Below are positions 26,649 to 49,900 of a stretch of 64,000 nucleotides of DNA, piece after piece. How positions within the stretch are numbered: position 1 is the stretch's first letter; every line of letters starts with the position of its first letter. A model generated the notes under the pieces. It made no database searches. It was not told the origin of the DNA and worked only from the letters and a program-made list of their open reading frames with translations. This DNA is from Acidobacteriota bacterium (lineage in GTDB: Bacteria > Acidobacteriota > UBA6911 > RPQK01 > JAJDTT01). The stretch spans positions 2,080,001 to 2,144,000 of the forward strand of contig CBDCJH010000002.1 of the NCBI GenBank assembly GCA_965217775.1, in the 5' to 3' direction. The translations under genes and the position numbers were made by a program.

Positions 26649-27602
26649 TCAGGGCGTGTCGAGGGATTCTCCCGGAGATACAGCTCCCGCTCTCTCGGTG
26701 ATGGGGAGATAGTCCCGGATGCTCCGGTTCTCGTCGAAGTTGAGGGCGTGTTTTCTGTACCTCGCGGTCTGGTCCAGGTCGCATTGGGCCACCACCAGTT
26801 CGTCCTTCAGCGTGGTTGCCATGGCTACGATCTCTCCCTCCGGCGAGATGATGCAGCTCTGGCCGATCTGACTCACCCCCGCTTCGACCCCGGCCTTGGC
26901 GACGCCCACCACCCAGACGCCGTTCTGGTAGGCGCCCGCCTGCATGCAGAGCAGGTTGTGAAACCGGGCCAACGGCGCCTTCCCGGGACGGTCCGGCCAC
27001 GAGTCGGGGGTGTTGTATCCCAGCAGAATCAACTCGGCGCCTCGCAGCGCCAGCACCCGGTAGGTCTCGGGCCAGCGGCGATCGTAGCAGGTGCACAGAC
27101 CCACGACTCCGCCGAAGGCACGCCAGGTTCGAAACCCAAGGTTCCCCCGATCGAAATAGTACTTCTCCAGGTTCTGGTACCGGTCCCCGGGTTGGAACTC
27201 GGCGTTTCCTGGCAGGTGGATCTTCCGGTACTTGCCGATGATCCGGCCGTCCTTGTCCACCAGGATCGAGGTGTTGTAGCGGCGCGCCTGACCGTCCTCC
27301 CGGGTCAACTCGGCGTAACCCAGGTGGAACCCGATGCCCAGCTCCTTGGCCTCGTCGAACAGTCTCTGCGTCTCCGGTCCCGGCATCTCCCGCTCGAACC
27401 AGGCGTCGATTTCGTCCTGGTCTTCCATGTGCCAGTGGGCGAAGAAAGCCGTCAGGGCCACTTCCGTGAAGACCACCAGGTCGCAATCGAGGCGGCTCGC
27501 CTCCCGCATCTGGGACAGCAACCGTTCCACGACGTCCGCGCGGGTTTCGGAGCGGGAGACGGGTCCGGACTGGGCTGCGGCAACGGTCAGGATTCGTGGC
27601 AT
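26649..27602 (-). CDS. N-carbamoyl-D-amino-acid amidohydrolase (nitrilase superfamily)
   Basis: VFTEVAL, KYRKIHLPG, CYDRRWPE (E-K-C triad), LGYNTP. Confidence 0.85.
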   Translation of the reverse strand: MPRILTVAAAQSGPVSRSETRADVVERLLSQMREASRLDCDLVVFTEVALTAFFAHWHMEDQDEIDAWFEREMPGPETQRLFDEAKELGIGFHLGYAELTREDGQARRYNTSILVDKDGRIIGKYRKIHLPGNAEFQPGDRYQNLEKYYFDRGNLGFRTWRAFGGVVGLCTCYDRRWPETYRVLALRGAELILLGYNTPDSWPDRPGKAPLARFHNLLCMQAGAYQNGVWVVGVAKAGVEAGVSQIGQSCIISPEGEIVAMATTLKDELVVAQCDLDQTARYRKHALNFDENRSIRDYLPITERAGAVSPGESLDTP

Positions 27603-27710
27603 GGTCTTCAGCCGTCAAGATGGCGCAAGTCAGCGCTTGGCGCAAGTATGACCTGCCACAGACAATGCGTTCGAGAGCAGTCACTGAACCCTTCGTATAC
27701 AATGGCTCGG

Positions 27711-28163
27711 ATGCTCGCCAAGCTTTTCCTCATTCCGGTATTCGTCTTCCTTTCGTTCTCCAGTATGGCGGGTGCCGACAAGGCGACTTTAAAGCGGATC
27801 GTAAGAAACATGATCTGCGTTTGCGGGTCGTGCTCCCACCTCGTAGACGACTGCGGAGACGAGTGCGGCATGGCTCCCCAAATGAGTGCCAATATCCAGA
27901 AGAGACTCGACAGCGGAATGACGGAGCAGGAAATCTTCGCGGTGTACGAGAGCGAGTTAGGACTCAAGATCCATGCTGCCCCCAAAACCGAGGGCTTTTT
28001 TCTTCTTGCGTGGGTCCTCCCCTTCGTCGCCCTGACCTGCGGGGGCGTTCTGGTCGTCATCTTCCTCAAGAACCGGAAAGAGCCCGAGCCGCAGTCGAAG
28101 ACCCGCCGCCGGCGCCTATCTGCCAAGCACCGCAAGATGCTGAACCGGGAACTGGCGGAGTAA
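27711..28163 (+). CDS. Cytochrome c biogenesis CcmH/NrfF-like protein
   Basis: Signal peptide, ICVCGSC..C...C, AAP..GFFLLAWVLP transmembrane segment. Confidence 0.7.
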   Translation: MLAKLFLIPVFVFLSFSSMAGADKATLKRIVRNMICVCGSCSHLVDDCGDECGMAPQMSANIQKRLDSGMTEQEIFAVYESELGLKIHAAPKTEGFFLLAWVLPFVALTCGGVLVVIFLKNRKEPEPQSKTRRRRLSAKHRKMLNRELAE

Positions 28164-28216
28164 GGCCCGGTGACGCGGGACGCCTATTCCGGCGCCCTTC
28201 CGACCCATCGAAACCG

Positions 28217-29374
28217 ATGGAGACCCCGCTGATCTTCCCGGCTTGGCTAGCCCTCTCGGGAGCTATCTTGGCTGCCATCTGGCTGGCGGGGGCATGGCAC
28301 CTCTCCAGTCGGATCCGCCGCCGGGTGCTGGAGCCCAGTACCCGAAGAGGCGCGCGGCCACTTGAGGTTCTCAAGGTCGAGCCGGACCGTGTGACCTTGG
28401 GAGTCCTTCCGGAGACCGGCTCCAGCCGCCGCTGGCGCCAGGAGGGTCTCTGGGGTCTGCGCTGGCCGGACGGCTACGCCCAGGCCGGCGAGATTTTGCA
28501 TCTCGGGAAGAGGAAGGTGACTCGAAGCCTTCGTCTTCTGAACGGAGATCCGGCGCCCGGGACCCGGGTGACACTCACCAGCTTCGCCTTTCCCGACAAC
28601 CCGCGAGACGCCTTTGGTTTGCCGGTCCAACCGCTACGGTACCGCTCACCACTGGGCCGATTCCCTGCCTGGTCGACCGCCGGTTCCCGCTCCACCTGGG
28701 TCATCTTCGTCCACGGAAAGCGAGCCGCACCGCCAAGCCGCGCCCTCCGTTCCTATCCACTGCTGAAGGTGGCGTCGGATCTGGGATTTCCGGGCTTGGT
28801 CATCTCCTATCGAAACGATCTGGAGGCCGCGCCCGCCCCGGACGGACGCCACTGGTACGGACTCACCGAGTGGGAGGATCTGGAAGGAGCCGCCCGCCAC
28901 GCGCGGGAGTCCGGGGCCCAAGACCTGGTCCTGGTCGGCTACAGCATGGGCGGGGCCTTGGTCATGAGCTTCCTGCGGCAATCGGACCTCGCTCGATCCG
29001 TCAATGGAATCATTCTGGACTCGCCGGTCCTGGATCTTGAGGCGACGTTGGACTTCGCCGCCCAACACAGGGGGTATCCCAGGATCTTTCGCCACGCGGC
29101 GAAAACCCTGGCTCGAGTTCGTTTCGGGGTCCCATGGAAGGAGTTGAATTACGTCAGGAACACGGGACACCTACAGGCGCCTACGCTGGTTTTCCATGGG
29201 GGCGTGGACACCCTGGTTCCGCTCCGAACCAGTCAGCTGCTGGCCCGCTCTCGCCCCGATCTGGTCCGGTGCGAGACGTTTCCCGGCGCCTCCCACGGTC
29301 GGGCCTGGAACCTGGATCCGGACCGGTACGAACGGGTCGCCCGGGAGTTCCTGAAGACCGTATCGAGCGCTTAA
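28217..29374 (+). CDS. Membrane-anchored alpha/beta hydrolase
   Basis: N-terminal TM segment, WVIFVHG, GYSMGG, FHGGVDTLVP, ASH. Confidence 0.8.
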   Translation: METPLIFPAWLALSGAILAAIWLAGAWHLSSRIRRRVLEPSTRRGARPLEVLKVEPDRVTLGVLPETGSSRRWRQEGLWGLRWPDGYAQAGEILHLGKRKVTRSLRLLNGDPAPGTRVTLTSFAFPDNPRDAFGLPVQPLRYRSPLGRFPAWSTAGSRSTWVIFVHGKRAAPPSRALRSYPLLKVASDLGFPGLVISYRNDLEAAPAPDGRHWYGLTEWEDLEGAARHARESGAQDLVLVGYSMGGALVMSFLRQSDLARSVNGIILDSPVLDLEATLDFAAQHRGYPRIFRHAAKTLARVRFGVPWKELNYVRNTGHLQAPTLVFHGGVDTLVPLRTSQLLARSRPDLVRCETFPGASHGRAWNLDPDRYERVAREFLKTVSSA

Positions 29375-30112: not shown

Positions 30113-30172
30113 AGGCGAACTCGGGCCCGGCGTCCTGATGCCGTTGACGTGGACGTGGAGCAGGAGCAGAGC

Positions 30173-30241
30173 ATGAAGCTGGAAGATCTGCAGACCAACG
30201 CCACGGTGCGGGGCATCCTGTCCGACGGCCTTGCGTCGTAG
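30173..30241 (+). pseudogene. N-terminal stub resembling SNF2-family helicases of defence/RM loci
   Basis: GGAG RBS followed by MKLEDLQTNATVRGILSDGL and then a stop. Family recognised from memory, not searched. Confidence 0.45.
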
Positions 30242-30337
30242 GCGGGAGCGGCTGGAGAGTCGACTGCGCGAGTTGGAAGTCCTGCAACGTGGGGGTCAGG
30301 TTGCGAGCGCATTCGTCACTGCCGCGAGAGGAGGTGC

Positions 30338-30367
30338 CGAGAGGAGGTGACTGTCCCCCTTCTCTCG
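30338..30367 (+). repeat. Cassette-delimiting palindromic repeat R1
   Basis: CGAGAGGAGGTGACTGTCCCCCTTCTCTCG (one extra C), preceded by an extra left half-site CGAGAGGAGGTG at 30325-30336. Confidence 0.95.
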
Positions 30368-30384
30368 CCCGACGTTACTCTACC

Positions 30385-30414
30385 TTGACCACCCGATTCG
30401 GTGTCCTCTACGAT
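30385..30414 (+). promoter_or_regulatory. Putative sigma70 promoter inside the oxidoreductase cassette
   Basis: TTGACC-N18-TACGAT, conserved upstream of the second copy (~36627-36656). Confidence 0.5.
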
Positions 30415-30450
30415 TCACCCAAATTCCAGCCCCCAGAAAGGACGGCCATC

Positions 30451-31680
30451 ATGGTGAGATCGGAGAGGCGCTCCCAATTCATCAGCCGCCGGATGTTTTT
30501 CCAAAGTGCGAAGGCAGCCGGTACGACCGCATTGACGGCTTCGCTATTCGGAAAATCGTATCGCCCGCTCGAGGCTGGCAAGCAGTTGCGGATCGGTGTG
30601 GTGGGCGGCGGATTCGGCGCCGCGTTTCCCTGGCAGCGGCATCCCAACTGCAAGGTGACCGCGGTCGCTGATCTCAGGGCGGACCGGCGGAAAAGGCTGG
30701 AAGAGAGTTTCGAATGCTCTAACACCTATGCCGATTTCCGTGCCATGCTCAAGGACCCTTCAGTGGATGCAGTCGCCATCTTCACCGGGGCACCCCATCA
30801 CGTTCCGCACTGCGTGGAGGTCATGGAATCCGGTCGGCACGTCATCAGTGCGGTTCCAGCCGCCATAACCTTGGAACAGTGCCAGCAGCTTCTGGAGGCC
30901 GTGAAGCAGACCGGCCAGATCTACATGATGGCCGAAACCAGTTGCTTTCACCCAGCCACCATGACTGCCCGTAGACTGAGACAAGAAGGCAAGTTCGGGA
31001 GAATCTACTACACCCAGGGGGATTACATCCATGACCACGGCACCTACCTGGCGAAGGGGGAGATGCCGGAGTATCTGGAGCGGATGTTCTTTCACGAGGG
31101 TAAGCCGACATGGCGGTATGGCAACGCTCAAGGCCTCTATATCACCCATGCCAGCGGTCCGATCATTCATGTGACCGGCGAGAGCCTGGTTGAGGTCGCG
31201 GCGGTCGGAACACCGATGGACTACCCGTTCTTCAAGGAGAACCGGTACGGTAACCCGTTTGTGAACACCACCTTCTTCTTCAAGACGTCGGGTGGAAACT
31301 CCTCCCGAATCAACATCCACTGGTGGACCTCAGCTCCCGGCCGTGAAGGAGCGGATTATTTTGGGACCGAAATGTCGTTGTTCGAGAGGTGGAAGGGTCT
31401 GCGCCCTTCCGCTTACGTGACCCGTCCTCATTCAGAACCCGAACTTTTGCAGGCAGACCACTCGGCAGAACTGCCGCCGTCGCTGCGGAACGTTGGGGGA
31501 CACGGGGGTTCCCATCCCTTCATCATTCATGAGTTCGTTTCGGCATGTCTGGAGCAACGGCCCCCGTCGGTCGATGTCCATCAGGCCCTGTCCTATACTG
31601 CGCCCGGAATCGTAGGATTCCACTCGGCCCTAAAGGGTGGAGACTGGCTGAAGATTCCCGATTTTGGACCCGTCAGCTAG
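30451..31680 (+). CDS. Tat-exported Gfo/Idh/MocA oxidoreductase, copy 1
   Basis: SRRMFF twin-arginine signal, RIGVVGGGFG, YMMAET, GGHGGSH; 409 aa. Confidence 0.88.
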   Translation: MVRSERRSQFISRRMFFQSAKAAGTTALTASLFGKSYRPLEAGKQLRIGVVGGGFGAAFPWQRHPNCKVTAVADLRADRRKRLEESFECSNTYADFRAMLKDPSVDAVAIFTGAPHHVPHCVEVMESGRHVISAVPAAITLEQCQQLLEAVKQTGQIYMMAETSCFHPATMTARRLRQEGKFGRIYYTQGDYIHDHGTYLAKGEMPEYLERMFFHEGKPTWRYGNAQGLYITHASGPIIHVTGESLVEVAAVGTPMDYPFFKENRYGNPFVNTTFFFKTSGGNSSRINIHWWTSAPGREGADYFGTEMSLFERWKGLRPSAYVTRPHSEPELLQADHSAELPPSLRNVGGHGGSHPFIIHEFVSACLEQRPPSVDVHQALSYTAPGIVGFHSALKGGDWLKIPDFGPVS

Positions 31681-31720
31681 CCGATCCCGGAGAGTCCGGC
31701 GGCTTGGGGAACTCGCGCGG

Positions 31721-31749
31721 CGAGACGAGGTGACCGTCCCCTTCTTCCG
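31721..31749 (+). repeat. Repeat R2
   Basis: CGAGACGAGGTGACCGTCCCCTTCTTCCG. Confidence 0.9.
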
Positions 31750-31961
31750 CGCCGACGGGCCTGGAATCCTGCGCCGCGAAAGGTTGTGGAATAGTAGTTG
31801 ACCAAGCGATTGGGAACTTGCTAGGTTGACCGACCGAATGGGGAAGCCACACTTACCTGAGCCCTTCGATGGGGCCTGCTGGTTTTAAATGGAGGGATGA
31901 GTTCCGCATCTGAAACTAACCGATGAGGATTGGCGGGACTGGTTGACTCGGGAGATTTGAG

Positions 31962-32465
31962 ATGACTCGATACCCGATTGTTTACACCTACAGAGAAGTC
32001 ATTGTGGGCAATGGATACGTGGCGGCCGTGGAAACCACTGGCAGGTGCCTGATGGAGGACTTTGGTAATGAGGATGTCTGGGTCACCGGAGTCGATCCTT
32101 CTGGATTTTCCGCCGGGGCCGACGACCAACAAGCCGCTGCGGAAGCCTTCCAGCGAGAGCACCGTGTCGCTCTCCTTGACATGATTCATGAGGCACCTGA
32201 TTTCGAGAGCTTTAGCACCATGGTCCATGAGTTCCATGCTCAGAAGAGTGTGATCGGCCAGAAGGAATGGTGGGAAGCCGTTGCTCAAGTAAGGGCTGGG
32301 GTAATCACATCTGAGTGGCTGGAGAAAGTGTCGGCCGACACTGAACCCAAGCTCAAGGTTCAGTGTATTTCTTTGGGCAATTCCGAGGAGCCCGTGGAAC
32401 ATCGGGCTGTACCGAGCCCGTCACTCAATCCTGACGAGTATCAGATTAGAAAACTCGCTGCGTGA
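31962..32465 (+). CDS. Hypothetical protein (possibly HicB-like fold)
   Basis: 167-aa ORF with GGGAG RBS; TGATG overlap with a following 26-codon stub. Confidence 0.6.
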   Translation: MTRYPIVYTYREVIVGNGYVAAVETTGRCLMEDFGNEDVWVTGVDPSGFSAGADDQQAAAEAFQREHRVALLDMIHEAPDFESFSTMVHEFHAQKSVIGQKEWWEAVAQVRAGVITSEWLEKVSADTEPKLKVQCISLGNSEEPVEHRAVPSPSLNPDEYQIRKLAA

Positions 32466-32545
32466 TGCCGGCGAAAGGGCAGATTCCCATCAGGCAAGTG
32501 AAGAAAATGCTTGATGAATGTGCCCCCGGATCCGAACTGCCTTGA
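32465..32545 (+). pseudogene. Truncated partner gene ending at repeat R3
   Basis: MPAKGQIPIRQVKKMLDECAPGSELP*, translationally coupled; the stop abuts R3. Confidence 0.45.
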
Positions 32546-32574
32546 GGAGAGGAGGTGACTGTCCCCTTCTCCCG
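32546..32574 (+). repeat. Repeat R3
   Basis: GGAGAGGAGGTGACTGTCCCCTTCTCCCG. Confidence 0.95.
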
Positions 32575-33090
32575 AAGTGGCCCACATGCACGCGCGATGG
32601 CGCTGTCCGCGACCTCGCGCCGGACACTGCCGAGGTCGAGGCTCCCACTGATCCGCAGGCTGGCCGTGCCCGGCCTGAAGATGCGGTCCCGCAAGACCCG
32701 CTTCTCTCATCTCAGTTCGTCGGCAGTCTTCAATTGTCCTTCCTCGACGGAATCCGGAGCGAGACTTGGTTCAGCGTCCCTAACCGTCGGTTCGCCGAAG
32801 GATCGGGGTGCGCCACGTTCTCCAGCCCATGGCAATTGCTGATTGATCGATTACTTCACGTACTTTACACTATATAAGCTCATAATATCACTATAATTTC
32901 ACTCTATTCTGCTATCGTTGATTCAAGTATGTTGCTCGACGCGTTAGAGGCCATTTGTTGGCCTTCGAACGTTTCACAGAGAACTCAGCATGGGAAGCGC
33001 AGGTCACCGCGGGGTACCCGATCCAGTTGAGATCCTAGAGACGATTGACGTGATTACCCGTTCGGCACCCATGTAGTTGAAAAGAATCCA

Positions 33091-34716
33091 ATGAGAAAGC
33101 AGATGAGACCGATTGTCTTGGTTTTCGTGACGGCGTTGTTCGGCTGGGTGACCGGTGCCTCCGGGCTTGCCCAGACCATCTACGAGGTCACCATCTATAA
33201 CCTCACTCGGGGTCAGTTGATCACCCCTCCATTGCTGGCCACGCTCGGCCGAGAGGTTCAGAGCACGGATCAGACCGATCCACCGTATGCGGGCACTGTC
33301 TGGATCGACCCGGACATCATCACGCCATCAGATCCGACTGCGCTCGTGAGCGTGACGGATGCCGGAAGGGGGCAACGGACGATGTTCGACCAGCGGATCA
33401 AGGACTGGATCATGGTCAACGCCTATTTGTTCATGGCCCGATTTGATGATGGGCTGACTGCGGAGATTCAGGTCAATCCAGAGTTCGGCAGTGCGTCCTC
33501 CGCGATGGCAAAGGCAAGCAAATATGGGAGATCCATTGGCCAATTGCCGACCGTTCTTCGAACCAATGTCGAGACGGTCTGGATCCATAAAGGGAATGCA
33601 CCTCTCGGGGGTGGGAACAACAATATTCTCATTCATGTCGATTTTCCGGAAGATTATCTGGAGGAGGGATTGGTCCACGAGGGGGCGCACACTTCCCTGG
33701 ACCCACCTTGGATGGGGATTGTCAATGCCGCCGATTGGCGCGCTGCCCAGACGGCCGATGGCAACTTCATTTCCAACTACGCACGAGACCATCCGGAGCG
33801 AGAAGACATCGCCGAATCGTTCCTGCCGTACTTGGCCGTCCGAAATCGTTCGGCTCGAATCTCCCGATCTTACGAGCGGACAATCTTGGAGACGATGCCG
33901 AACCGGATCGCATACTTCGACCGACTTCTCCAGGCTCAATCGGACAACGCATTGCATCCAATCACGTTGGACCTTCGAAAGTCTCTGGACTTCGCGCATT
34001 TCGGGAATGGCGGGTCCATCACCTCGGACTTGGTGTTGATGAACGTGGAGCCGTCGGCGACTTACCCGGCCGTCTACTTCTACGACGAAATGGGTGAACT
34101 GATCGACCCCGAATCGGTGGTGGAGGTGACGGAAAATCTGGAAGTCCGGGAGGACGGAGCGTTGACCACCCGGACGGGGATTGAGCCTCTGGGTGAACTG
34201 GTGATTTCGACCCATGGGCGAGGGAAGTTGGTGACCGGATCGGTTACGGTCTTCTCCGACATCGTGCGCTCCAATCTCCAGGGCGGCAAGAACCGAGCGG
34301 ATGCGGGTGGCGCGGCCCGCATCGGCGGGGTCCTGCGGTTCGACTCCCCGTCCCTGGGCGTGGCCGGCGTGGGGGCCAGTGCGCCCGTAAACGACGTCAT
34401 TTTCCCGGCGCGTCGCCAAGAGGGCGGAATCAACACCGGAGCCGCGATCCGGAACCTGGGAGAGAATCGGATCGATGTGAGTTGCCAATTGATGAAAGCA
34501 GGCGCCGTATTGGAGACGAAGGACATTTCACTGGCCGGTAACGGACAGACGGCCAAGTTCATCCACGAGTTGTTCACCCAGACCGATACGTCCGATTTTG
34601 TCGGGTCGGTTCGTTGCACCGCTCCTGAAGGGGAACGGTTCACCGGTGTCGCCCTGGAGATGGATGCCGATAGCCGAATCTTTACGACTTTGCCGGTGGT
34701 TCCCGTCCCGCAGTGA
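33091..34716 (+). CDS. Secreted HExxH zincin-like protein with one copy of the shared C-terminal domain
   Basis: Signal peptide; LVHEGAH and NYA...EDIAESF; C-terminal DFAHFGNG...IFTTLPVVP homologous to the giant proteins. Confidence 0.8.
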   Translation: MRKQMRPIVLVFVTALFGWVTGASGLAQTIYEVTIYNLTRGQLITPPLLATLGREVQSTDQTDPPYAGTVWIDPDIITPSDPTALVSVTDAGRGQRTMFDQRIKDWIMVNAYLFMARFDDGLTAEIQVNPEFGSASSAMAKASKYGRSIGQLPTVLRTNVETVWIHKGNAPLGGGNNNILIHVDFPEDYLEEGLVHEGAHTSLDPPWMGIVNAADWRAAQTADGNFISNYARDHPEREDIAESFLPYLAVRNRSARISRSYERTILETMPNRIAYFDRLLQAQSDNALHPITLDLRKSLDFAHFGNGGSITSDLVLMNVEPSATYPAVYFYDEMGELIDPESVVEVTENLEVREDGALTTRTGIEPLGELVISTHGRGKLVTGSVTVFSDIVRSNLQGGKNRADAGGAARIGGVLRFDSPSLGVAGVGASAPVNDVIFPARRQEGGINTGAAIRNLGENRIDVSCQLMKAGAVLETKDISLAGNGQTAKFIHELFTQTDTSDFVGSVRCTAPEGERFTGVALEMDADSRIFTTLPVVPVPQ

Positions 34717-34739
34717 CGAGAATCAATTGAAAAGACGTC

Positions 34740-34850
34740 CTTCCGATAGCCGATGCCGCCGCTCTCCGTGCCGACCTCGGTCTGATACTTGAGGATAAAG
34801 GTGATCAGGTCGGCCATCTCCTGGTGGTCGATGTTCTCTTCCAGACTCTT
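34740..34850 (-). pseudogene. 3' fragment of a paralogue of the PVC-type heme protein at 46733-49900
   Basis: LEENIDHQEMADLITFILKYQTEVGTESGGIGY versus LEETINHQEMADLISFILKYQYEVGTESAGIGY. Confidence 0.8.
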
Positions 34851-34862
34851 GTAACGGGCCCG

Positions 34863-34891
34863 CGAGAGGAGGTGACTGTCCCTTTCTCCGT
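34863..34891 (+). repeat. Repeat R4
   Basis: CGAGAGGAGGTGACTGTCCCTTTCTCCGT. Confidence 0.95.
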
Positions 34892-34907
34892 TTCACTTGA
34901 CTTACAG

Positions 34908-35189
34908 TCAGCAAAACGACCCCATTACGTAGATACCACCGAGAAGCGCCCCAGTGAGAACAATTGCCGGAATGTATCCTCCCGATGGTGCCGCCGGTGG
35001 TGGTGCCGATGGTGCCGCCGGTGGTGGTGCCGACCTGGAGTTTAGCCATCGGATCGACGCCCAAATCAGCAGAATCACGAAGACCGGAAGTAGAGCCAGT
35101 GCAGCAAGATACAAAAATGCAAGAATCCCCAGGCCACCGACCCCCAAGATTACCGCTATCGCTGCCAGTAACTCTGCTATCTCTGCCAT
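34908..35189 (-). CDS. Small hypothetical membrane protein
   Basis: GAGGGGGG RBS, hydrophobic segments, internal 24-bp tandem duplication at 34982-35029. Confidence 0.5.
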   Translation of the reverse strand: MAEIAELLAAIAVILGVGGLGILAFLYLAALALLPVFVILLIWASIRWLNSRSAPPPAAPSAPPPAAPSGGYIPAIVLTGALLGGIYVMGSFC

Positions 35190-35521
35190 GGCGAAGCCCC
35201 CCTCAGTATTTGCCCCTCTTCTCGCCGGTCGCCTTCCACCATCCGAACGCCAGAGCTGCCCGTTGCTCCCGGTCGGGATGCTCGAAGTCATGCGCGAATA
35301 GTCGATCAGGTCTGGAAGCCGGACCCTTGTAGCGTAGATCGAACGCAGCCGCGACGAGCCGAACGAGGAAGCTTCTCACTTGCCATTGATCCGCCTTGAG
35401 ACCCGGGGTCCGCTGCCGAGACATGCTACCCAGGATTGCAGACAGTTGGAACCGGGGGACCTCCAGTAAATCCAGGCTGGAGTTGATTGCCGATCAAATT
35501 CGACCTGGAGCATCCGTTTCC

Positions 35522-35778
35522 TCATTCTGCCGCCTCGTAGAGCGATGAAATCCCGAACCCCTGGACCTCGACGCCCTCAGAGTAGGCAGTCGACATAGCG
35601 GGAGATTTCCAACGCAGGATGACCGCGACCGCATGCGCCGGTATACCGTTCAATGTGAGCTGCTGAGCCAGACCCCCTCTCAGGGAATGACCGGAGACCC
35701 TGCCCCGGATGCCCGATTGACGTGCCCTTTTCTTGATCACGTCTCGAACTGCCCGAGCTACGAGCTTCACGTGGAGAG
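35522..35778 (-). pseudogene. C-terminal fragment of a tyrosine recombinase, cut at R5
   Basis: VIKKRARQSGI..RVSGHSLRGG.AQQL...RWKSPAMSTAY (HxLR box and catalytic Tyr region); no N-terminus. Confidence 0.75.
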
Positions 35779-36174
35779 TGAAGAGAGGTGACTGTCCCCT
35801 TCTCTCGTCCCCGTTGAAGTCAACGAGACATCGAGCCTCACTTGGTCGTAAGGCACCCGCGGGACCAGCCTCCCACGCGCTCCCCGTTGCAATTCCACGA
35901 TCCCGTATTGAGACATCGTCTTCAGAGTTCGCGAAAGGTTCGACTTGCTTCGTCCGGCCATCTCCGCGAGCTCCGTGAGCGAACCCGGTTGCTCTCGGGC
36001 AATCAGCTCCAGGAGATGCCTGTTGTGCTCGGACAGCAACTTCGCAATGCTCTCGATCGAGGTGAACCACACCTTCGGCTCACCCTTCGCGGGCGTGTGC
36101 TCGCCGCGGGCAATCGCCAGGGTGCGCGCCTTCATCTGATCATAACCGGCAATCCCGATCTCTAACGTCTTCAT
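35767..36174 (-). CDS. HTH transcriptional regulator/antitoxin (HVO_A0114-like)
   Basis: WFTSIESIAKLLS...PGSLTELAEMAGRSKSNLSRTLK; the C-terminus reads through R5. Confidence 0.75.
   Translation of the reverse strand: MKTLEIGIAGYDQMKARTLAIARGEHTPAKGEPKVWFTSIESIAKLLSEHNRHLLELIAREQPGSLTELAEMAGRSKSNLSRTLKTMSQYGIVELQRGARGRLVPRVPYDQVRLDVSLTSTGTREGDSHLSSLST
35779..35807 (+). repeat. Repeat R5
   Basis: TGAAGAGAGGTGACTGTCCCCTTCTCTCG. Confidence 0.9.
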
Positions 36175-36246
36175 GGAATCGAGCCTCCTTTCTCCAAGAA
36201 CTTGGTCCACTTCTTTCCAGAAATCCTCGAGGAGCGTCGCTGCGTC

Positions 36247-36543
36247 TTAGTATTCATAGGGCCGGATCGTCCGCAGCCGATGCCGATGGTCGCCCTCTGC
36301 CCGTCGTCGCCTGCCCGGGCCCGACCGCTCCCTAACCGGGTGCGCATTATCGATTCCAACCAATCTGGCGCCATCCGGCGCGTGCAGCGTCAACGAGTAC
36401 CGGAGGCCGTGCGGTCGTTCGGGAGTCACCTCGGTCCGCACTACGATGAACTTCACCCAATACCCCGTGTCGTCCACAAACAGCGTCTCGCCGTGAAGGT
36501 CGAGCAGGGTGTCCAGTCCGGGATCTCGGCCCGGAATCGTCAT
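36247..36543 (-). pseudogene. DUF6516/TumE-like putative toxin, probably with a premature stop
   Basis: RPHGLRYSLTLHAPDGARLVGIDNAH..DHRH; after the TAA the frame continues DAATLLEDFWKEVD. Confidence 0.65.
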
Positions 36544-36580
36544 CGATTGATGTTATCAGATAATGATAACCGAGGACGGG

Positions 36581-36609
36581 CGAGAGGAGATGACTGTCCC
36601 CTTCTCTCG
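36581..36609 (+). repeat. Repeat R6
   Basis: CGAGAGGAGATGACTGTCCCCTTCTCTCG. Confidence 0.95.
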
Positions 36610-36693
36610 CCTTGCGTTACCCTGCCTTGACCGCCTGATTCGGTGCCCTCTACGATTCACCCCAGATTCCAGCCCACAGAAAGGACAGCCATC

Positions 36694-37923
36694 ATGGTGA
36701 GATCGAAAGCACGATCCCAATCCATCAGTCGCCGAATGTTTTTCCAAGGTGCAAAGGCAGCTGGTACGACAGCATTGACGGCTTCACTATTCGGAAGACG
36801 GTACCGCCCGCTTGAGGCTGGCAAGCAGTTGCGCATCGGCGTGGTGGGCGGTGGATTCGGCGCAGCGTTTCCCTGGCATCGGCATCCCAACTGCAAGGTG
36901 ACCGCAGTCGCTGATCTCAGGGAGGACCGCCGGAAAAAGATGGAAGAGCGGTTCGAGTGCTCTAACGCCTATGCGGATTTCCGCGCCATGCTCAAGGACC
37001 CCTCAGTGGATGCAGTCTCCATCTTCACCGGGGCGCCCCGTCACGTTCCCCATTGCGTGGAGGTCATGGAATCCGGTCGACACGTTATCAGCGCCGTTCC
37101 GGCCGCCATAACCCTGGAACAGTGCCAGCAGCTTCTCGTGGCCGTCAAAAAAACCGGCCAGATCTACATGATGGCCGAAACCAGCTGCTTTCACCCATCC
37201 ACCATGACTGCCCGCAGACTAAGGCAAGACGGCAAGTTCGGGAGAATCTATTACACGCAGGGGGACTACCTCCATGACCACGGCACCTACTTGGCGAAGG
37301 GGGAGATGCCGGAGTATCTGGATCGGATGTTCTTTCACGAGGGCAAGCGAACATGGCGGTACGGCAACGCGCAAGGCCTCTATATCACCCATGCCAGCGG
37401 TCCGATCATTTATGTGACCGGCGAGAGCTTGGTTGAGGTCGCGGCGGTCGGAACGCCGTTGGATCACCCGTTCTACAAGGAGAACCGGTACGGCAACCCC
37501 TTCATGAACACCACCTTCTTCTTCAAAACGTCGGGTGGAAACTCCTCCCGAGTCAACATCCACTGGTGGACCGCAGCTCCCGGCCGTGAAGGTGCGGACT
37601 ATTTTGGGACCGAAATGTCGTTATTCGAGAGGTGGAAGGGTCTGCGCCCTTCCGCTTACGTGACTCGTCCTCATTCAGAACCCGAACTTCTGCAGGCAGA
37701 CCACTCCGGGGAACTGCCGCCGTCACTGCGGACCGTTGGGGGACACGGGGGTTCCCATCCCTTCATCATTCATGAGTTCGTTTCGGCATGTCTGGAGCAG
37801 CGCCCCCCGTCAGTCGATGTCCATCAGGCCCTGTCCTATACTGCGCCCGGAATCGTAGGATTCCACTCGGCTCTGAAGGGTGGAGACTGGCTGAAGATTC
37901 CCGATTTTGGACCCGTCAGTTAG
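36694..37923 (+). CDS. Tat-exported Gfo/Idh/MocA oxidoreductase, copy 2
   Basis: 409 aa, collinear and highly similar to 30451-31680. Confidence 0.88.
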   Translation: MVRSKARSQSISRRMFFQGAKAAGTTALTASLFGRRYRPLEAGKQLRIGVVGGGFGAAFPWHRHPNCKVTAVADLREDRRKKMEERFECSNAYADFRAMLKDPSVDAVSIFTGAPRHVPHCVEVMESGRHVISAVPAAITLEQCQQLLVAVKKTGQIYMMAETSCFHPSTMTARRLRQDGKFGRIYYTQGDYLHDHGTYLAKGEMPEYLDRMFFHEGKRTWRYGNAQGLYITHASGPIIYVTGESLVEVAAVGTPLDHPFYKENRYGNPFMNTTFFFKTSGGNSSRVNIHWWTAAPGREGADYFGTEMSLFERWKGLRPSAYVTRPHSEPELLQADHSGELPPSLRTVGGHGGSHPFIIHEFVSACLEQRPPSVDVHQALSYTAPGIVGFHSALKGGDWLKIPDFGPVS

Positions 37924-37963
37924 CCATAACCGGTGAGCCCGGTTGTTTTGGAAACTCGCGCGG

Positions 37964-37992
37964 CGAGAGGAGGTGACTGTCCCCTTCTCCCG
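37964..37992 (+). repeat. Repeat R7
   Basis: CGAGAGGAGGTGACTGTCCCCTTCTCCCG. Confidence 0.95.
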
Positions 37993-38099
37993 GTTATGGC
38001 CGCCAATTTCCTCCGGGCTATGGCAGGAAGAATAGAGTCGTTTAAACTGCACTCATAGGCTGAAAATGTAGCACCATCCCATCGGCGAGGAGAGAGTCA

Positions 38100-38780: not shown

Positions 38781-38804
38781 AACGCGTCGGCAACAAAATA
38801 CGGA

Positions 38805-38833
38805 CAAGAGGAGGTGACTGTCTCCTTCTCCCG
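38805..38833 (+). repeat. Repeat R8
   Basis: CAAGAGGAGGTGACTGTCTCCTTCTCCCG. Confidence 0.9.
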
Positions 38834-38914
38834 CCCGTCAAAGCTGGAGACGAAATTGTTGGGTGGAGTTCCGGAAACCCCGGTGTTCCACTTTGACCGA
38901 CAAGAACTCCCATC

Positions 38915-39772: not shown

Positions 39773-39801
39773 CGAGAGGAGGTGACTGTCCCCTTCTCGT
39801 C
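39773..39801 (+). repeat. Repeat R9
   Basis: CGAGAGGAGGTGACTGTCCCCTTCTCGTC. Confidence 0.95.
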
Positions 39802-39863
39802 CGATTTTGGACCCGTCGGTTAGCCGATCCCGGAGAGGCCGGCGGCTTTGGGAACTCGCGGGA
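39801..39863 (+). pseudogene. 63-bp 3' tail of the oxidoreductase cassette (third, vestigial copy)
   Basis: Aligns without gaps to 31658-31720 (PDFGPV.* plus trailer). Confidence 0.9.
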
Positions 39864-39892
39864 CGAGACGAGGTGACTGTCCCCTTCTCCCG
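39864..39892 (+). repeat. Repeat R10
   Basis: CGAGACGAGGTGACTGTCCCCTTCTCCCG. Confidence 0.95.
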
Positions 39893-40116
39893 CGCCCGGT
39901 TGCGGCGGGGGAGCGGAGCTGGCCCACGCGCTACAGTGCGAGACCGAGGGCCGATTTCGATGATCTGGAAGCTACCACTATTCAACTCGGGCTCCCGCAC
40001 CCGAGCTACTGGCCCGAGACTCGGGCAAGGGATAGACTGGGGGACAGGAGGGTAGTTCTCTGTGGGCTCGTCAGGCCGAGTGGGAACGTGTCGAAACAGC
40101 GGGTTGAGTAAAGACT

Positions 40117-41136: not shown

Positions 41137-41531
41137 TAGATACGCTTGTCATTGAAGTCGGCACGGACGTTACCGGTCTTTGGGAAGGCTCCAATAAACC
41201 CCTTTTGTGCCCTGAGGGCTTCCCTGGAAGCACCCAGTTTGTTCAATGGGTCATTGCCTCGAACCATGAAGGGTCGGTTGGTTCGCAAGCGAATACTGTG
41301 AGCCGCGCCACCGTTTCTATTCAGCCAAGTCATCGTCTCTTTCAGCAATTCCACCATTCCCACTCATGTGTGTGTCTGCTGCGCCTTCGAAGAAGTGGTC
41401 ACCAAGGAGAAGCCGACCCCAAACTCAGCCATGACGAATGTTCTCTAGCATAACGGTCCGTGCTGAACAGGACAGATCATGTGCCAACGACAGTGCAGCG
41501 CACTAGGATTGCACGGTGGGATGGTTCCTCA

Positions 41532-42550
41532 ATGAGTATCGAGCAGCGCTTCGATGTTCCCGTCATCGCCGCAATGGCGCTCCGGGAGAAGCAGATCCAG
41601 CAGAACTACCGCCCGATCATCAGTGTCCATAAATGGTTCGCCCGCCGGCCGGGAACCTTGTTTCGCGGCCTCGTACTTGCAGAATTCGGCAAAGACCCAC
41701 TGAAAAATGCTTTCTTTCGAGCAAACAACTTTTACGGACTCCGGATCGCCGACTCGTTCATGGGCGGCGGCACGCCGCTGATCGAGGCGAATCGCGTTGG
41801 CTGTGACGTGGATGGTTGTGACGTCAACCCGATGGCGGCCTGGATCGTCCGTGAGGAGGTCGAACACATTGACATGCCGGCCTATGAACGGGCGGCTGAT
41901 GCGCTCACCGCTGCCCTCCGCTCGGAGATCGGCCGATACTATCGGACTTCCTGCCCCCACTACGGAGATGAGGACGTCCCGGTGGAATCCTTTCTGTGGC
42001 TCAAGCAACTCGATTGCGAAGCCTGCAGAATGCCCTTCGATCTATTCCCTGGCTACCTTCTCGCCAAGAATAGGCGGCACCCCAAAAATGTCCTGGTCTG
42101 TCCAACGTGCGGCGATCTCAACGAAGTCCGGTCGGATCTTGACACTTATGTCGATGCCGTGTTCGGGTGTCTCACGTTCGAGTTTCTCGTCATGCCCAAG
42201 GGCGACGGGTTTGTCGAGTTTCCCGTGTTCGAGAACGGGTACGAAGCCCTGAAGCGCGCCACCGCCAGCTTCCGCGAAGTCACCCCTGGTACAGTCGCAG
42301 CGGTTGTATTCGAGACGCCAATTTTACTGATCGTCCTTCGGTGCATGCTGGGGTTCACACCGCCGGAGTGGACTTAATACGCAAACAGGCACACCGGCGT
42401 CAACGTGACGCAGGGCGCGGCCCGTGCGATCGACCGGAAAATCCGCATGAAACCCGAGACGGCCTTGCCTACGAAGGGAAGTGTGACCGAACGGCGCATT
42501 CGCGCGCTGATCGCTGCCGCCTGTCATGCCCTGGAGTCCGGGGTTCGTGA
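41532..42550 (+). pseudogene. DUF1156-type adenine DNA methylase N-terminus fused to a fragment of another gene; internal stop, cut at R11
   Basis: VHKWFARRP, DSFMGGGT SAM motif, CxxC Zn ribbon, no catalytic DPPY. Sequence character changes at ~42130. TAA at 42375, then the frame stays open into R11. Confidence 0.7.
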
Positions 42551-42579
42551 GGAGAGGAGGTGACTGTCCCCTTCTCCCG
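42551..42579 (+). repeat. Repeat R11
   Basis: GGAGAGGAGGTGACTGTCCCCTTCTCCCG. Confidence 0.95.
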
Positions 42580-43023
42580 GGTGGGTCTGGCGGGGACGAA
42601 GTGGGCGCGGCACAGAGCTGGACGATGCGCCTGAAACTGCTGAAGATCGGGGCCCAGGTCCGGGTCACGACGCGCAAGGTCTGGTTGTCGTTTTCCGAGA
42701 GCTACCCCTATGCGGCGTTGTTGAGAACGGCTCTGGCGCAAGTGCAAGCCCTCCCGCTTCGCTGTTAGCGAGAACTCGCCCGATGCAAGACGTCCGGTTG
42801 GGAATCCGCGGGATGGACTTTGCCCTGGAGTCGGTTCATTGGGGGTGAAACGTCGCTCATGAGTGCCGGCGGGAGGCCAAATGCTTCTGGACTTTGCCGG
42901 ATTCCGGCATTCGTCAACGCATTCGAGCCGACGGCATGGTTCTCGATTTCATGTGGACAAGAAACCACTGAAATGCTGTTAATAAAACCGATTGTCGCGT
43001 CCGTGTTGAGAAATTGCGGCTAG
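42580..43023 (+). mobile_element. 3' remnant of an IS1380-like element
   Basis: TMRLKLLKIGAQVRVTTRKVWLSFSESYPY transposase C-terminus (stop at 42768); probable element end TGAGAAATTGCGGCTAG at ~43007-43023. Confidence 0.7.
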
Positions 43024-43073
43024 CAGTTGAAGGACGAATTGCTCTTGGGGTGTTGTCAGTTCTTCGGGTTCGG

Positions 43074-43550: not shown

Positions 43551-43553
43551 TGT

Positions 43554-44209: not shown

Positions 44210-44639
44210 TTATAATTCCCAATTCAAAACATTCTCGCCGAAATCTCCAAGAGAAGAGATCCGGTTCCTCAAGGCGGCAAGAGGGATGGAGTCAAAGTAG
44301 TTAGCAAGATCAGTGATGACGACGTAGTTGTAGGATCGCGCGAACTTCCAGATCCGTTCCTGGAATCGCGGCCACAGAATCCACCAAGGATACGCGAATG
44401 TGCCGTCAACCTCCTCGGGAGTCGGGAGAGCATGATTCTGGGAGTAGTAGGCGTTCGGATGGGGCTGATCAGCCCTGATCTCCCTCTCTAGAACATTGAC
44501 CAGAGTCTGGAGAAGAATAGCGTCTGCCGCCGACGGCAGAACCAATCGCCGAGGGATTCCTCCCCGTTTCTCTAGCAGTATGATCTCGGGTGGGGACGGG
44601 CGATACTGACCTGAAAGGACTTCACTTCTTAGCAAGGAC
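44210..44639 (-). pseudogene. Reverse transcriptase fragment (N-terminal motifs only), cut at R12
   Basis: SGQYRPSPP...EKRGGIPRRL..P...D...VVITDLANYFDSI; no PQG or YxDD motif. Confidence 0.75.
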
Positions 44640-44668
44640 CGAGAGGAGGTGGCTGTCCCCTTCTCACG
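44640..44668 (+). repeat. Repeat R12
   Basis: CGAGAGGAGGTGGCTGTCCCCTTCTCACG. Confidence 0.92.
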
Positions 44669-49700: not shown

Positions 49701-49900
49701 AACGATGCCAGGGCCTCCTGCGGCTCCTTGGGCGGAACCGGCTGGAGATACTCGGCCAAGGCCGCCTCGTCCCGGGAAATGTCCACGATCTCGCGGAACG
49801 GATCCCGCGTGTCTTCGTCAACCCCGCAAGCCAGGAACGGGATCAGAAACGCTCCGGCGACGAAACGTCCAGCCGTTCGCAGACACAGATTGGACTCCAT
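46733..49900 (-). CDS. PVC-type membrane-bound dehydrogenase-like / heme-binding CxxCH protein
   Basis: Lipobox FLAC, LEDTDGDG propeller, FRPVN, HEAT repeats, CLKCH, SLMPEGL. Confidence 0.9.
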   Translation of the reverse strand: MESNLCLRTAGRFVAGAFLIPFLACGVDEDTRDPFREIVDISRDEAALAEYLQPVPPKEPQEALASFEAVDGFRMEMVAHEPLVNDPVAAAFDENGRLYVAEMRDYPYQPGPGEKPIGVVRLLEDTDGDGTLDQSHVFADELLWPTGVTVWNGGVYVTAPPDIWYLKDTDGDAKADIRKKVYSGFGHQNEQQMMNSIIMGVDHWIYGIASGNAGEIRSLENPDSRPVSLGARDFRFDPVSGRFETTTQTFQFGHAFDQWFNRFVCNQGMPGCHVVLPARYLERNPYLFVNLHRWLGPGANQVKPLVQGQTRLYKISPVEGWRTIRQARRIFAGSSSRSAGVGHDYLTAGSGVTMYTGHAYPEKYRGSYFMGANTGNLIHRRVLIDDGVTFRSERGEAEGSEFVRTADNWFRPVNAVNAPDGTVYFLDMSRELIEATHVPGRVMKHLDFTSGRDRGRIYRLAPPGFVSPPPPRLGEATIEELVAHLEHDGGWWRATAHRLIREREDRSAAPLLRRLLRESSRPLARMHALWSLEGLGSLRDRDLLRGLGDPEAGVRVHAVRLAESRLNRSRALFRKVSDLAQDPEIRVRFQVALSLGEVRGQRALPALVRIAREDTGDFWVRNAVLSSCAEFGHQLFARLANEETFLAQPKSVQWLSRLARAVGARERARELRRVLGVMAANPVLAARPSARQEIILGMAEGLAYSGGSLLGLRRLPASAASMIKAHMERAGKIVADESASLGDRLESIRLLHHDRLARVKPVLASLVDPQQPQDLQIAAIDALAGFQSPEIPGLLLEDWMAHSPRTRSKILETLFARQEWTSALLEAVSEESVAANQIDAKRRDLLVNHDDETIRERAARLLGSEELGSRKDVLVEFQASLSLTGDHKRGEAVYRRECLKCHRLSSREHPIGPNLIRGSEKDPESLLVNILDPNRFVEPQYLQYVATDLKGGLYTGLLTDETATSVTLVEGDDLRNTLLRENIREIRATTNSLMPEGLEETINHQEMADLISFILKYQYEVGTESAGIGYGEEVYEEMMLHPSLRPENQDPQKGN

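Follow-up and report, generated by a model that had tools for sequence, protein, structure and literature searches.

An oxidoreductase gene module, duplicated within a hypervariable acidobacterial array, ends at repeats of a probable TIRtron family

TIRtrons consist of genes for TIR-associated tyrosine transposases (TIRYT) together with dispersed TIR families (Di Nocera et al. 2013, PMC3733652), and TIRYT correspond to subclass 2.1 of Quentin et al. 2018 (PMC6006769). In the relevant sections of these papers, the TIRs are given the motif GGGGWSAS (PMC3733652), an Acidobacteria-specific TIRYT group is on record, and TIR families are said to occur 'in dimers or clusters' (PMC3733652, PMC6006769). 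Our comparisons place a repeat and its linked transposase from an Acidobacteriota bacterium in the TIRYT/TIRtron type, an assignment supported by the Y1 protein, the inverted TIRs, GGGGWSAS and a common 15-nt core.

The repeat delimits modules in a 64,000-nt stretch of DNA, here called the window. In our best reading, the 1.41-kb unit that is duplicated there forms one module of a hypervariable array lying between two conserved chromosomal genes. The module comprises its own sigma-70-like promoter, a gene for a putatively Tat-exported Gfo/Idh/MocA oxidoreductase, a spacer and a repeat of ~30 nt. The features of the window are as follows.

5289..5438, + strand: piece of the repeat-linked Y1 transposase (aa 261-310, 96% identity), lying 25 kb outside the array
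27596..29374, + strand: upstream conserved flank, alpha/beta-hydrolase ORF; congener homology stops at ~29360-29375
30338..31749, + strand: unit A, with R1, promoter-like site 30385-30414, Gfo/Idh/MocA gene 30451-31680, spacer and R2
30338..30367, + strand: R1 (CGAGAGGAGGTGACTGTCCCCCTTCTCTCG), with a 12-nt duplicate of its own 5' arm just before it (30325-30336)
31721..31749, + strand: repeat R2
32546..32574, + strand: repeat R3
33091..34716, + strand: 541-aa ORF, captured copy with a different 5' end
34733..34849, + strand: 117-nt segment duplicated from the downstream flank gene (46798-46914, 85%), adjoining R4
34863..34891, + strand: repeat R4
35579..35773, - strand: tyrosine recombinase C-terminal fragment (Pfam profile 102-166 of 172) that stops at the 5' boundary of R5
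35779..35807, + strand: repeat R5
35809..36608, - strand: TumE-toxin/wHTH module, genes 36247-36543 and 35767-36210
36581..37992, + strand: unit B, with R6, promoter-like site 36627-36656, Gfo/Idh/MocA gene 36694-37923, spacer and R7
36581..36609, + strand: repeat R6
37964..37992, + strand: repeat R7
38805..38833, + strand: repeat R8
39773..39801, + strand: repeat R9
39801..39896, + strand: 5'-truncated third Gfo copy (tail, spacer, R10), joined directly to R9
39864..39892, + strand: repeat R10, in the third, truncated Gfo copy
41460..42377, + strand: DUF1156-type DNA methyltransferase N-terminal fragment (profile positions ~19-200 of ~950)
42551..42579, + strand: repeat R11
42578..43027, + strand: remnant of a multi-copy element whose right end is fixed; other copies are cut at varied left positions beside a repeat
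44221..44635, - strand: defence-type reverse transcriptase fragment (PADLOC RT_UG13a, profile 58-194 of 589); homology begins at the edge of R12
44640..44668, + strand: repeat R12
46733..49900, - strand: downstream conserved flank, DUF7133/HEAT/cytochrome c gene; congener homology begins at ~46682-46763

The 541-aa ORF is regarded as a captured copy because nt 33233-34717 match genes at four other, repeat-free loci of relatives with 84-92% identity.

A search of the window with a 23-mer consensus, allowing at most three mismatches, returned 11 matches, all on the + strand, where 100 shuffles gave an expectation of 0. R1, which has one additional C, is the twelfth copy and also lies on the + strand (12/12). 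Aligned copies of the repeat have the invariant columns G/A..TG.C.GTC.C..T. Genome-wide, the family numbers at least 116 copies, spread over 34 loci; of the 23 multi-copy clusters, 20 have all their repeats in the same orientation. Cluster orientation is independent of replichore, with both orientations found on both arms (origin ~4.95 Mb, terminus ~1.65 Mb). Eight 81-nt single-strand folds were no better than shuffles (z -0.47 to +1.54), and over 115 copies the seven inner pairs and seven outer positions paired no more often than shuffled partners. None of the recombinase families is found repeatedly next to the 23 clusters.

The preliminary description had proposed that one cassette occurs twice, between R1 and R2 and between R6 and R7, with boundaries at the repeats. 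This was confirmed: both units are 1412 bp long and they are 91% identical. Pairwise alignment with 300-bp flanks, read as identity per 100 columns, gave 84-97% from ~30328/36572 to 31749/37992 and 35-43% outside, and homology does not extend beyond the repeats. The flanking modules differ, as had been claimed, A and B each being set within different unique modules. In both copies the ATG (30451 in A, 36694 in B) lies 113 bp from the start of the repeat, and both genes encode 409-aa proteins matching Pfam GFO_IDH_MocA (E 7e-19), again as described. The genes are identical at 1130/1230 nt and 380/409 aa, and their differences fall 21/12/67 at codon positions 1/2/3. The resulting dN of 0.035, dS of 0.28 and dN/dS of 0.125 point to purifying selection on both genes. 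TTGACC-N18-TACGAT is present in both copies and matches 9 of 12 consensus positions, a quality expected by chance 0.4-0.6 times per 1.7 kb. The element is kept in 9/9 Gfo units, which upholds the earlier suggestion that the unit carries its own promoter. The proposed Tat signal stands as far as a twin-arginine motif, SRRMFF, spotted by eye; the Pfam and NCBIfam match lists for the Gfo proteins contain no Tat-signal model. A third, partial Gfo copy is found at 39801-39896, where the last 22 nt of the gene are followed by spacer and repeat, 92% identical to 31658-31753.

Unit B is the copy orthologous to the gene of the congener G007, the nearest relative. In the tree, these two form a clade (100/100) and A falls outside the pair; A is a divergent allele and not a recent duplicate. 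In alignment columns 690-920, A shares 96.5% identity with G007 and B only 90.4%. The Gfo alleles are thus mosaic between lineages, which shows ordinary allelic recombination at the locus.

The linked transposase is a RAYT-like HUH protein of 311 aa with a visible HUH motif (HFH). It scores 37.3 bits with Pfam Y1_Tnp (cut-off 23) and matches NCBIfam REP_Tyr_transpos at E 1.7e-13 over profile positions 3-144 of 146. The genome analysed here (G000) holds 11 full-length copies (83-100% identity, one with a stop) plus one fragment, and congeners have 2-11 matches. All 11 full-length copies are preceded by inverted GGGGACAGTC (-133 to -304) and followed by direct GACTGTCCC (+162 to +302). Flanking inverted repeats were also found at 9/9 best transposase copies in G000-G007 and G023, and at 0/2 copies of 56-58% identity. 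The array repeats and the upstream TIRs have the 15-nt core GACTGTCCCCTTCTC in common, and the complement of every repeat core reads GGGGACAG, which fits GGGGWSAS. The downstream TIR of G023 is identical to the array variant GGTGACTGTCCCCTTCTC. A 17-mer of the repeat occurs in 16-84 copies in 9/9 genus genomes and in 0-2 copies in 51 other genomes of the order; G023, with 57 copies, is exceptional outside the genus, and it alone there has a 79%-identical transposase, the remaining genomes having at most 58%. Among relatives, the repeat is abundant only where close transposase homologues occur. Taken together, these sequence comparisons indicate that the repeat is a genome-wide family sharing its core with the terminal inverted repeats of a multi-copy Y1 transposase gene, that is, a TIRtron.

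The same site in seven congeners holds 3-17 kb of differing content, with modules permuted, duplicated or truncated beside repeats. For instance, the Gfo unit has the TumE/wHTH module on its upstream side in G000, G007, G002 and G003, but on its downstream side in G004. The Gfo unit occupies the same chromosomal site in 8/8 congeners and is therefore resident in this hypervariable locus; it was seen at no other locus among the congeners examined. The claim that the repeat-to-repeat unit is the mobile unit was therefore borne out in part: the duplicated unit is repeat-bounded, but movement between loci was not seen. For most pairs of orthologous units, homology is confined to the stretch from about the promoter through the downstream repeat (8/8 congeners). 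Of the two repeats, only the downstream one is part of the conserved unit (9/10); the upstream repeat abuts it in 5/9. Homology between G000 and G007 breaks at 30324/30325, exactly at R1. Of the 135 homology-block ends among eight arrays, 55 fall no more than 45 nt from a repeat (random 7.5 ± 2.5), an enrichment that is inflated because repeats are intergenic, where homology blocks tend to end anyway; the other 80/135 lie away from any repeat.

Many repeat junctions carry gene fragments and not whole cassettes. Pieces of the Gfo gene adjoin repeats in G000, G005, G007 and G008. Fragments of reverse transcriptase, integrase and multi-copy elements adjoin repeats as well. Breakage and joining at repeats would account for such junctions better than a clean exchange of cassettes. 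At C2:4310916, a repeat and 343 nt stand in place of 2.6-3.0 kb found in G006 and G007, which are repeat-free there; this comparison indicates that a repeat can arise de novo at a replacement junction. The distance between junction and repeat core is variable (2 nt at R9, ~9 nt in G007), and no fixed cleavage position relative to the core emerged.

Based on these observations, we suggest, with about equal weight for and against, that the repeats are transposase-linked break-and-join sites in a fast-changing locus. The Y1 transposase would nick and rejoin DNA at or beside repeats. A segment ending in its own downstream repeat would be released or copied and then joined just 3' of another repeat. 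An upstream cut at the preceding repeat would yield a clean repeat-to-repeat unit such as A, and a cut elsewhere would yield a 5'-truncated piece such as 39801-39896. Such joining would also hold the repeats of an array in one orientation. In its operation, the system would thus resemble an integron without belonging to the integron family. HUH Y1 enzymes usually require a hairpin, and this reading is weakened because hairpin support is weak, folds and covariation being no better than shuffles. It is weakened further because no transposase gene adjoins the array (the nearest trace is the 150-nt fragment 25 kb off), no cut position is fixed, the Gfo unit is known from one locus only, and most block ends are not near a repeat.

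It is possible, with a lower probability, that the repeats are passive, in that the transposase spread the family once and has no current role. Host processes would now shuffle the modules: unequal homologous recombination between the co-oriented repeats of ~30 nt, template switching or replication slippage, and recombination of imported DNA at the repeats or flanks. The similarity of A and B takes in both bordering repeats, so crossing-over inside repeats could have occurred, and duplication followed by deletions would account for the TumE-Gfo and Gfo-TumE orders. The mosaic Gfo alleles, the distance of the array from any transposase gene and the variable cut offset also agree with passive repeats. 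However, junctions of a repeat edge with a gene-internal point lack homology, a repeat has appeared de novo where relatives are repeat-free, and the strict co-orientation of clusters does not track the replichore. An assembly chimera, in which A and B are one gene's alleles, merged into a single array from two strains that co-occur, is improbable. Short-read contigs break at the repeats, so they do not link A and B on one molecule. The runs holding the stretch are mixed populations, in which 30324 has a G007-like continuation and several letters vary, and summed contig depth is 70-86 in the A region (X4) and 27-35 in the B region. A and B come from different allele lineages, and CheckM-type contamination is 7.47%; however, it is likewise 6-8% in G004, G007 and G008, so the value looks like a genus trait. 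Also against a chimera, the genome is in two contigs, A and B have different surroundings, the same array holds a third, partial copy, and contigs of three runs span 37896-39857 (B tail, R7, R8, R9) with 0 differences.

The preliminary description had compared the unit with typical integron cassettes. An integron/CALIN, or another tyrosine-recombinase cassette system (Xer-dif-like) with an unusual short site, is very improbable. The co-oriented sites just 3' of genes, the low GC of the array region (0.53-0.60 vs 0.62-0.68 elsewhere), the toxin-antitoxin and defence-type cargo and the tyrosine-recombinase fragment would suit it, yet the idea failed on the enzyme and the site alike. No IntI was found (TIGR02249 best 80.6 bits vs a cut-off of 265, profile positions 187-240 skipped), and 0/26 Phage_integrase matches are intact beside the array. 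The repeat has no attC R''/R' boxes (AAC...GTT) and no favoured single-strand fold, and no Rfam family matched in 29000-46000 at E <= 1. We consider it least probable of all that the repeat is a mere regulatory or terminator element shared by unrelated genes and unrelated to rearrangement. Array repeats do sit 25-205 nt after the stop codons of co-oriented genes and ~110 nt before the next start codon. Against this, transposase genes are flanked by the repeat as an inverted pair, truncated gene fragments adjoin repeats, and orientation tracks the upstream gene weakly (53 co-oriented and 39 anti-oriented of 92, from a crude gene caller). The repeat is not followed by a T-run, and unit A yielded no terminator-like call.

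Among known systems, Xer-dif (pdif) modules have 28-bp XerC/XerD sites in alternating orientation, and they were rejected on orientation, the 12 sites here being co-oriented. Neisseria dRS3/NIME mosaic arrays have variable segments separated by short repeats, and Helitron/ISCR rolling-circle HUH elements capture host gene fragments; these resemblances are a lead only, since enzymes and repeat sequences differ from the array here. IS200/IS605 elements are defined insertion sequences in which directly oriented end hairpins lie on either side of the transposase gene. The transposase here belongs to the same enzyme superfamily, and the proposed excision between same-strand end sites is modelled on their 'peel and paste' single-strand transposition. 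However, the gene here lies between inverted repeats and the cargo modules between direct ones, and an IS200/IS605 insertion sequence was rejected because the transposase-flanking repeats are inverted. Co-oriented sites 3' of each module, low GC and cargo recall integron arrays, and a fixed chromosomal site whose content varies among close relatives recalls sedentary chromosomal integrons. In contrast to integrons, at least the Gfo module brings a promoter-like site of its own, many of the 'cassettes' are fragments of genes, and repeat loci number ~34 per genome.

Similar to REP/BIME and REPIN-RAYT systems, the repeat is a short imperfect palindrome scattered between genes, and the Y1 transposase gene is flanked by it in inverted orientation; JGI labels the transposase homologues 'REP element-mobilizing transposase RayT'. 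REP/RAYT in the strict sense (REPtron, REPIN) was nevertheless rejected. The transposase scores 50.7 bits with NCBIfam NF047646, below the RAYT cut-off of 80, and is multi-copy, in contrast to the single-copy domesticated transposase of REP/RAYT. The repeat has no GTAG or CGTC head and no stable hairpin, its clusters are co-oriented where REPINs are inverted doublets, and it lacks hairpin covariation. The likeness to TIRtrons is closer, with a RAYT-like Y1 HUH protein of ~310 aa between inverted repeats that bear GGGGWSAS. In contrast to TIRtrons as presented in the sections cited, there are 11 full-length transposase copies per genome, co-oriented arrays mark off gene modules, the loci are hypervariable, and gene fragments form junctions.

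Our analysis has shown that the repeats of this array are co-oriented within loci and mark the junctions of duplicated, permuted, truncated and replaced DNA. As the preliminary description had stated, one unit occurs twice, repeat to repeat, over 1412 bp each time (unit A, R1-R2, 30338-31749; unit B, R6-R7, 36581-37992; R1 to R12 denote the 12 repeat copies in order). Both units carry a 409-aa Gfo/Idh/MocA ORF (Pfam E 7e-19) that starts 113 bp from the repeat start, and both have the promoter-like TTGACC-N18-TACGAT element described earlier. Alignment with 300-bp flanks bore out the claim that similarity stops at the repeats and that the flanks are unlike: A and B are 84-97% identical per 100 columns inside the unit vs 35-43% outside it, with similarity beginning at about 30328/36572 and stopping at 31749/37992. 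Between the two genes there are 100 differences over 1230 nt (21/12/67 by codon position) and 29 over 409 amino acids. These substitutions are scattered, as had been reported, and correspond to a dN of 0.035, a dS of 0.28 and a dN/dS of 0.125; therefore both copies are maintained genes that have long been separated. Along the gene, dS declines from 0.38 to 0.15. A third, partial Gfo copy (39801-39896) consists of gene tail, spacer and repeat and is joined directly to R9. Between the stop codon and the repeat (31681-31720 vs 37924-37963), a small stem shows apparent paired changes (CCGGA-GAG-TCCGG vs AACCGG-TGAGC-CCGGTT, then a T-rich run), and it may serve as a terminator.

The 12 window copies of the repeat are about 30 nt long, lie on the same strand between 30338 and 44668, and have the consensus cGAGAGGAGG-TGACTGT-CCCCTTCTCcCG. 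When they are aligned, conservation is confined to these ~30 nt. A 23-mer searched at ≤3 mismatches found 11 matches in the window vs none in 100 shuffles, and R1, which carries one additional C, is the twelfth copy. The array region has a GC content of 0.53-0.60 vs 0.62-0.68 in the remainder of the window. Genome-wide, the 23-mer occurs 63 times and a reversed control pattern 0 times; shorter cores gave 116 matches (17-mer at ≤2 mismatches) and 225 matches (15-mer). The 17-mer copies are spread over 34 loci, 23 of which have at least two copies, and in 20 of these 23 all copies point the same way. A replication-strand rule for orientation was rejected, as both orientations occur on both arms (origin ~4.95 Mb, terminus ~1.65 Mb). 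Orientation follows the neighbouring gene only weakly (53 vs 39), as judged with a crude gene caller that missed low-GC genes and placed 24 of 116 copies 'inside' called ORFs. Folded as single-stranded DNA, the repeat region did no better than shuffled sequence, and a covarying outer stem, an impression gained by eye, disappeared once pairs were counted, leaving the hairpin without statistical support.

The earlier view of the duplicated DNA as a cassette-like mobile unit holds for its boundaries and its self-contained module, but it went too far on the mobility of the Gfo gene and was wrong about the family. The integron reading was rejected, as there is no IntI, no attC feature and no Rfam match. 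In the genome studied, the best match to the integron integrase model TIGR02249 scored 80.6 bits vs a cut-off of 265, with the IntI-specific part missing, and a search of Rfam over 29000-46000 returned no family at E ≤ 1. No intact tyrosine recombinase lies beside the array; there is just a C-terminal fragment inside it.

We have instead shown that the window repeats are the terminal inverted repeat (TIR) family of a Y1 transposase. A search of the genome for Y1 (HUH) transposases gave three weak matches ≤300 bp from repeat copies, and the repeat-adjacent proteins are 311-313 aa long with an HFH motif. The transposase matches the NCBIfam 'REP-associated tyrosine transposase' family at E 1.7e-13 (50.7 bits, below the 80-bit cut-off) and Pfam Y1_Tnp at 37 bits. 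It is present in 11 full-length copies of 83-100% identity, and one 150-nt fragment lies in the window. All 11 full-length copies have a repeat core upstream that points away from the gene and a variant downstream that points with it, and the segment common to the copies ends close to these flanking repeats. The same arrangement was seen in 9 of 9 best transposase copies of the genome studied (G000), its congeners G001 to G007 and G023, a genome of another family, and in 0 of 2 homologues at 56-58% identity. The window fragment (5289-5438, +) covers aa 261-310, is 96% identical and sits just 3′ of a giant ORF (2-5242).

This arrangement is that of the TIRtrons described in PMC3733652 and PMC6006769, in which genes for TIR-associated tyrosine transposases (TIRYTs) are flanked by TIRs sharing GGGGWSAS. 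The same literature reports a TIRYT group specific to Acidobacteria, as well as TIR families 'in dimers or clusters'. The shared motif corresponds to GGGGACAG on the complement of the window repeat core. Within the literature searched, the terms 'TIRYT' and 'TIRtron' were found solely in these two papers.

Among 60 relatives, the 17-mer count is 16-55 in each of the 8 other members of the genus and 0-2 elsewhere except in G023, which has 57. Outside the genus, a 79%-identical transposase was found solely in G023, the other genomes reaching ≤58%. This suggests that the repeat-transposase pair spread horizontally to G023. Dense one-direction repeat arrays lie near that transposase (G023:C1:1459207-1460750 and 1487644-1489816), with up to 16 copies in 2.2 kb at a spacing of 34-400 nt. 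The genome studied also encodes two more Y1 proteins of the classical RAYT type (223-233 aa; G000:C2:5635244-5635945 and 4665597-4666268), near which no copy of the window-type repeat was found. Two or more distinct pairs of repeat and transposase seem to coexist in it.

The locus was compared across congeners using 20 kb around the Gfo orthologue, which is single in each of 8 congeners at 89-95% amino acid identity, from seven of them. The array occupies the same chromosomal site: both conserved flanks (in the window, up to ~29375 and beyond ~46700) were present in 5 of the 7 genomes, and the other 2 showed the downstream flank alone within the fetched stretch (partial in G006). The DNA enclosed by the flanks varies in length from 3.0 kb (G004) to 17.35 kb (the genome studied) and is largely different even from that of the nearest relative, G007, whose flank is 96.5% identical; no two of the examined congeners are alike at this locus. 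Between genomes, the Gfo unit is homologous from approximately the promoter to the downstream repeat, and the promoter-like site is conserved in 9 of 9 units. As to whether orthologous units are also repeat-flanked, 9 of 10 units have a downstream repeat after a conserved linker, but just 5 of 9 adjoin an upstream repeat. A 790-bp TumE/wHTH module lies upstream of Gfo in the genome studied, G007, G002 and G003 and downstream of it in G004. The eight arrays have 135 distinct ends of homology blocks, of which 55 fall ≤45 nt from a repeat vs 7.5 ± 2.5 (maximum 16) for random positions; the intergenic position of the repeats would by itself be expected to give part of this enrichment. Elsewhere in the genome, at C2:4310916, a repeat and 343 nt stand in place of 2.6-3.0 kb still present in G006 and G007; the break falls exactly at the repeat's 5′ edge, and the counterpart in these two relatives has no repeat. 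The 343 nt (G000:C2:4310907-4311250; 708-1050 of locus L041) contain a repeat, a half-repeat and a degenerate inverted copy, and the stretch replaced starts with a signal-peptide ORF in G006 and G007.

In a maximum-likelihood tree of ten Gfo genes, B pairs with the G007 gene (100/100) and A falls outside the pair, nearest to G006 without support. The genome studied and G007 are collinear to 30324 and diverge exactly at the start of R1. This pairing and this break mean that A did not arise recently by duplication of B in place; A is either an ancient duplicate that has been lost elsewhere or an imported allele of another lineage that was joined at a repeat. Gfo alleles are mosaics between lineages. 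In alignment columns 690-920, and in that stretch only, G007 is 96.5% identical to A vs 90.4% to its orthologue B, which points to recombination of alleles between lineages. In no alignment window is A-B identity clearly the highest, and gene conversion between the two copies therefore does not serve as proof of a shared genome. A merging of A and B by chimeric assembly is highly improbable, and it keeps a small chance because no contig in the public runs links A to B. These runs are mixed populations with short contigs that end at repeats, and they include a G007-like continuation at 30324; a contig bridging 37896-39857 has 0 differences in three runs. Metagenome 'joints' were left uncounted, as most had sides <30 nt and several loose ends matched other repeat copies of the same genome.

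Gene pieces also adjoin repeats. In G007, two repeats enclose Gfo nt 92-298; in the genome studied, G005 and G008, there are Gfo tails with a repeat behind them; and end pieces of both flank genes are copied inside arrays. The window array holds the following pieces.

Gene pieces in the window array
Begins at R12: reverse-transcriptase fragment
Stops at R5: integrase fragment
40117-42377 interval (+): N-terminal fragment of a methyltransferase (DUF1156-type)
42578-43027: remnant of a multi-copy element, apparently the C-terminal end of a transposase

In G006, the multi-copy element is present as 15 or more near-identical copies of 320 nt, and its three other copies in the genome studied have different left cut positions, each right beside an inverted repeat copy. 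Module R3-R4 contains a 541-aa ORF for which relatives have matching genes at four other loci; the ORF was captured as a copy, because those loci have no repeats (0 of 4 within ~2 kb) and its 5′ end differs. Its C-terminal ~240 aa (33969-34719) form a domain without a Pfam match that is repeated in dozens of genes of the genome at 63-75% nucleotide identity, among them two giant ORFs at the window start (3865-5219 and 13400-14754) and large secreted proteins beside 8 of 23 repeat clusters. In the 40117-42377 interval, a single repeat-to-repeat one, a DUF2806 gene (E 6e-30) precedes the methyltransferase fragment. Inside the array, a ThsB-like TIR gene (43074-43991, −; Pfam ThsB_TIR E 9e-17, PADLOC ThsB) and, directly downstream of it, an 8xMP octameric-membrane-protein gene (E 1.6e-32) may form a two-gene defence module. 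Elsewhere in the genome, besides the Gfo copies, the array modules are matched just by the element remnant, the common C-terminal domain and a few 70-80% matches. Families that recur beside repeat clusters are large secreted proteins, glycan-degradation-type proteins, toxin-antitoxin genes, an aminotransferase, ankyrin proteins, a sulfatase and a further Tat-type Gfo/Idh/MocA gene.

Based upon these sequence comparisons, we infer, at about even odds, that the Y1 transposase nicks and joins DNA at the repeats. A segment ending in its own repeat would be re-joined immediately behind another repeat, and such re-joining would produce clean repeat-to-repeat units, 5′-truncated pieces and co-orientation. 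The main rival to this model is that host recombination and replication errors acted on passive repeats, which we consider rather unlikely yet worth serious attention. Several results stand against the transposase model: no transposase gene adjoins the window array, no recombinase family recurs beside the 23 repeat clusters, no fixed offset of junctions from the repeat was found among those sampled, and hairpin statistics give no support.

RAYT/TIRYT transposases and their repeats are widespread, and to our knowledge their genomic effects are still unclear. The pair described here is of this known kind; in the literature searched, we found no description of hypervariable loci where oriented arrays of such repeats accompany the shuffling of modules and the capture of fragments. 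Here, whole genes with their own predicted promoter stand beside truncated pieces of defence, recombinase and insertion-sequence genes at one locus. Should the transposase make the joints, cassette-like gene turnover and the capture of gene fragments in bacteria would have a new driver in HUH enzymes; otherwise, the repeats could still be used as a marker of hypervariable islands in this group. Our broader proposal, that a second, integron-like way of array building is run by an HUH (Y1) transposase with co-oriented TIR-type repeats as exchange sites, is speculative and on balance doubtful. If true, predicted self-expressed modules and chromosomal gene pieces would be cut or copied out with their own repeat and pasted behind another, each genome of an Acidobacteriota genus would hold accessory and defence genes in dozens of reservoirs that evolve fast, and the system would apparently have passed to at least one other family (that of G023). 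In integrons, a tyrosine recombinase drives the arrays, whereas in the system proposed here an HUH (Y1) transposase would do so instead.
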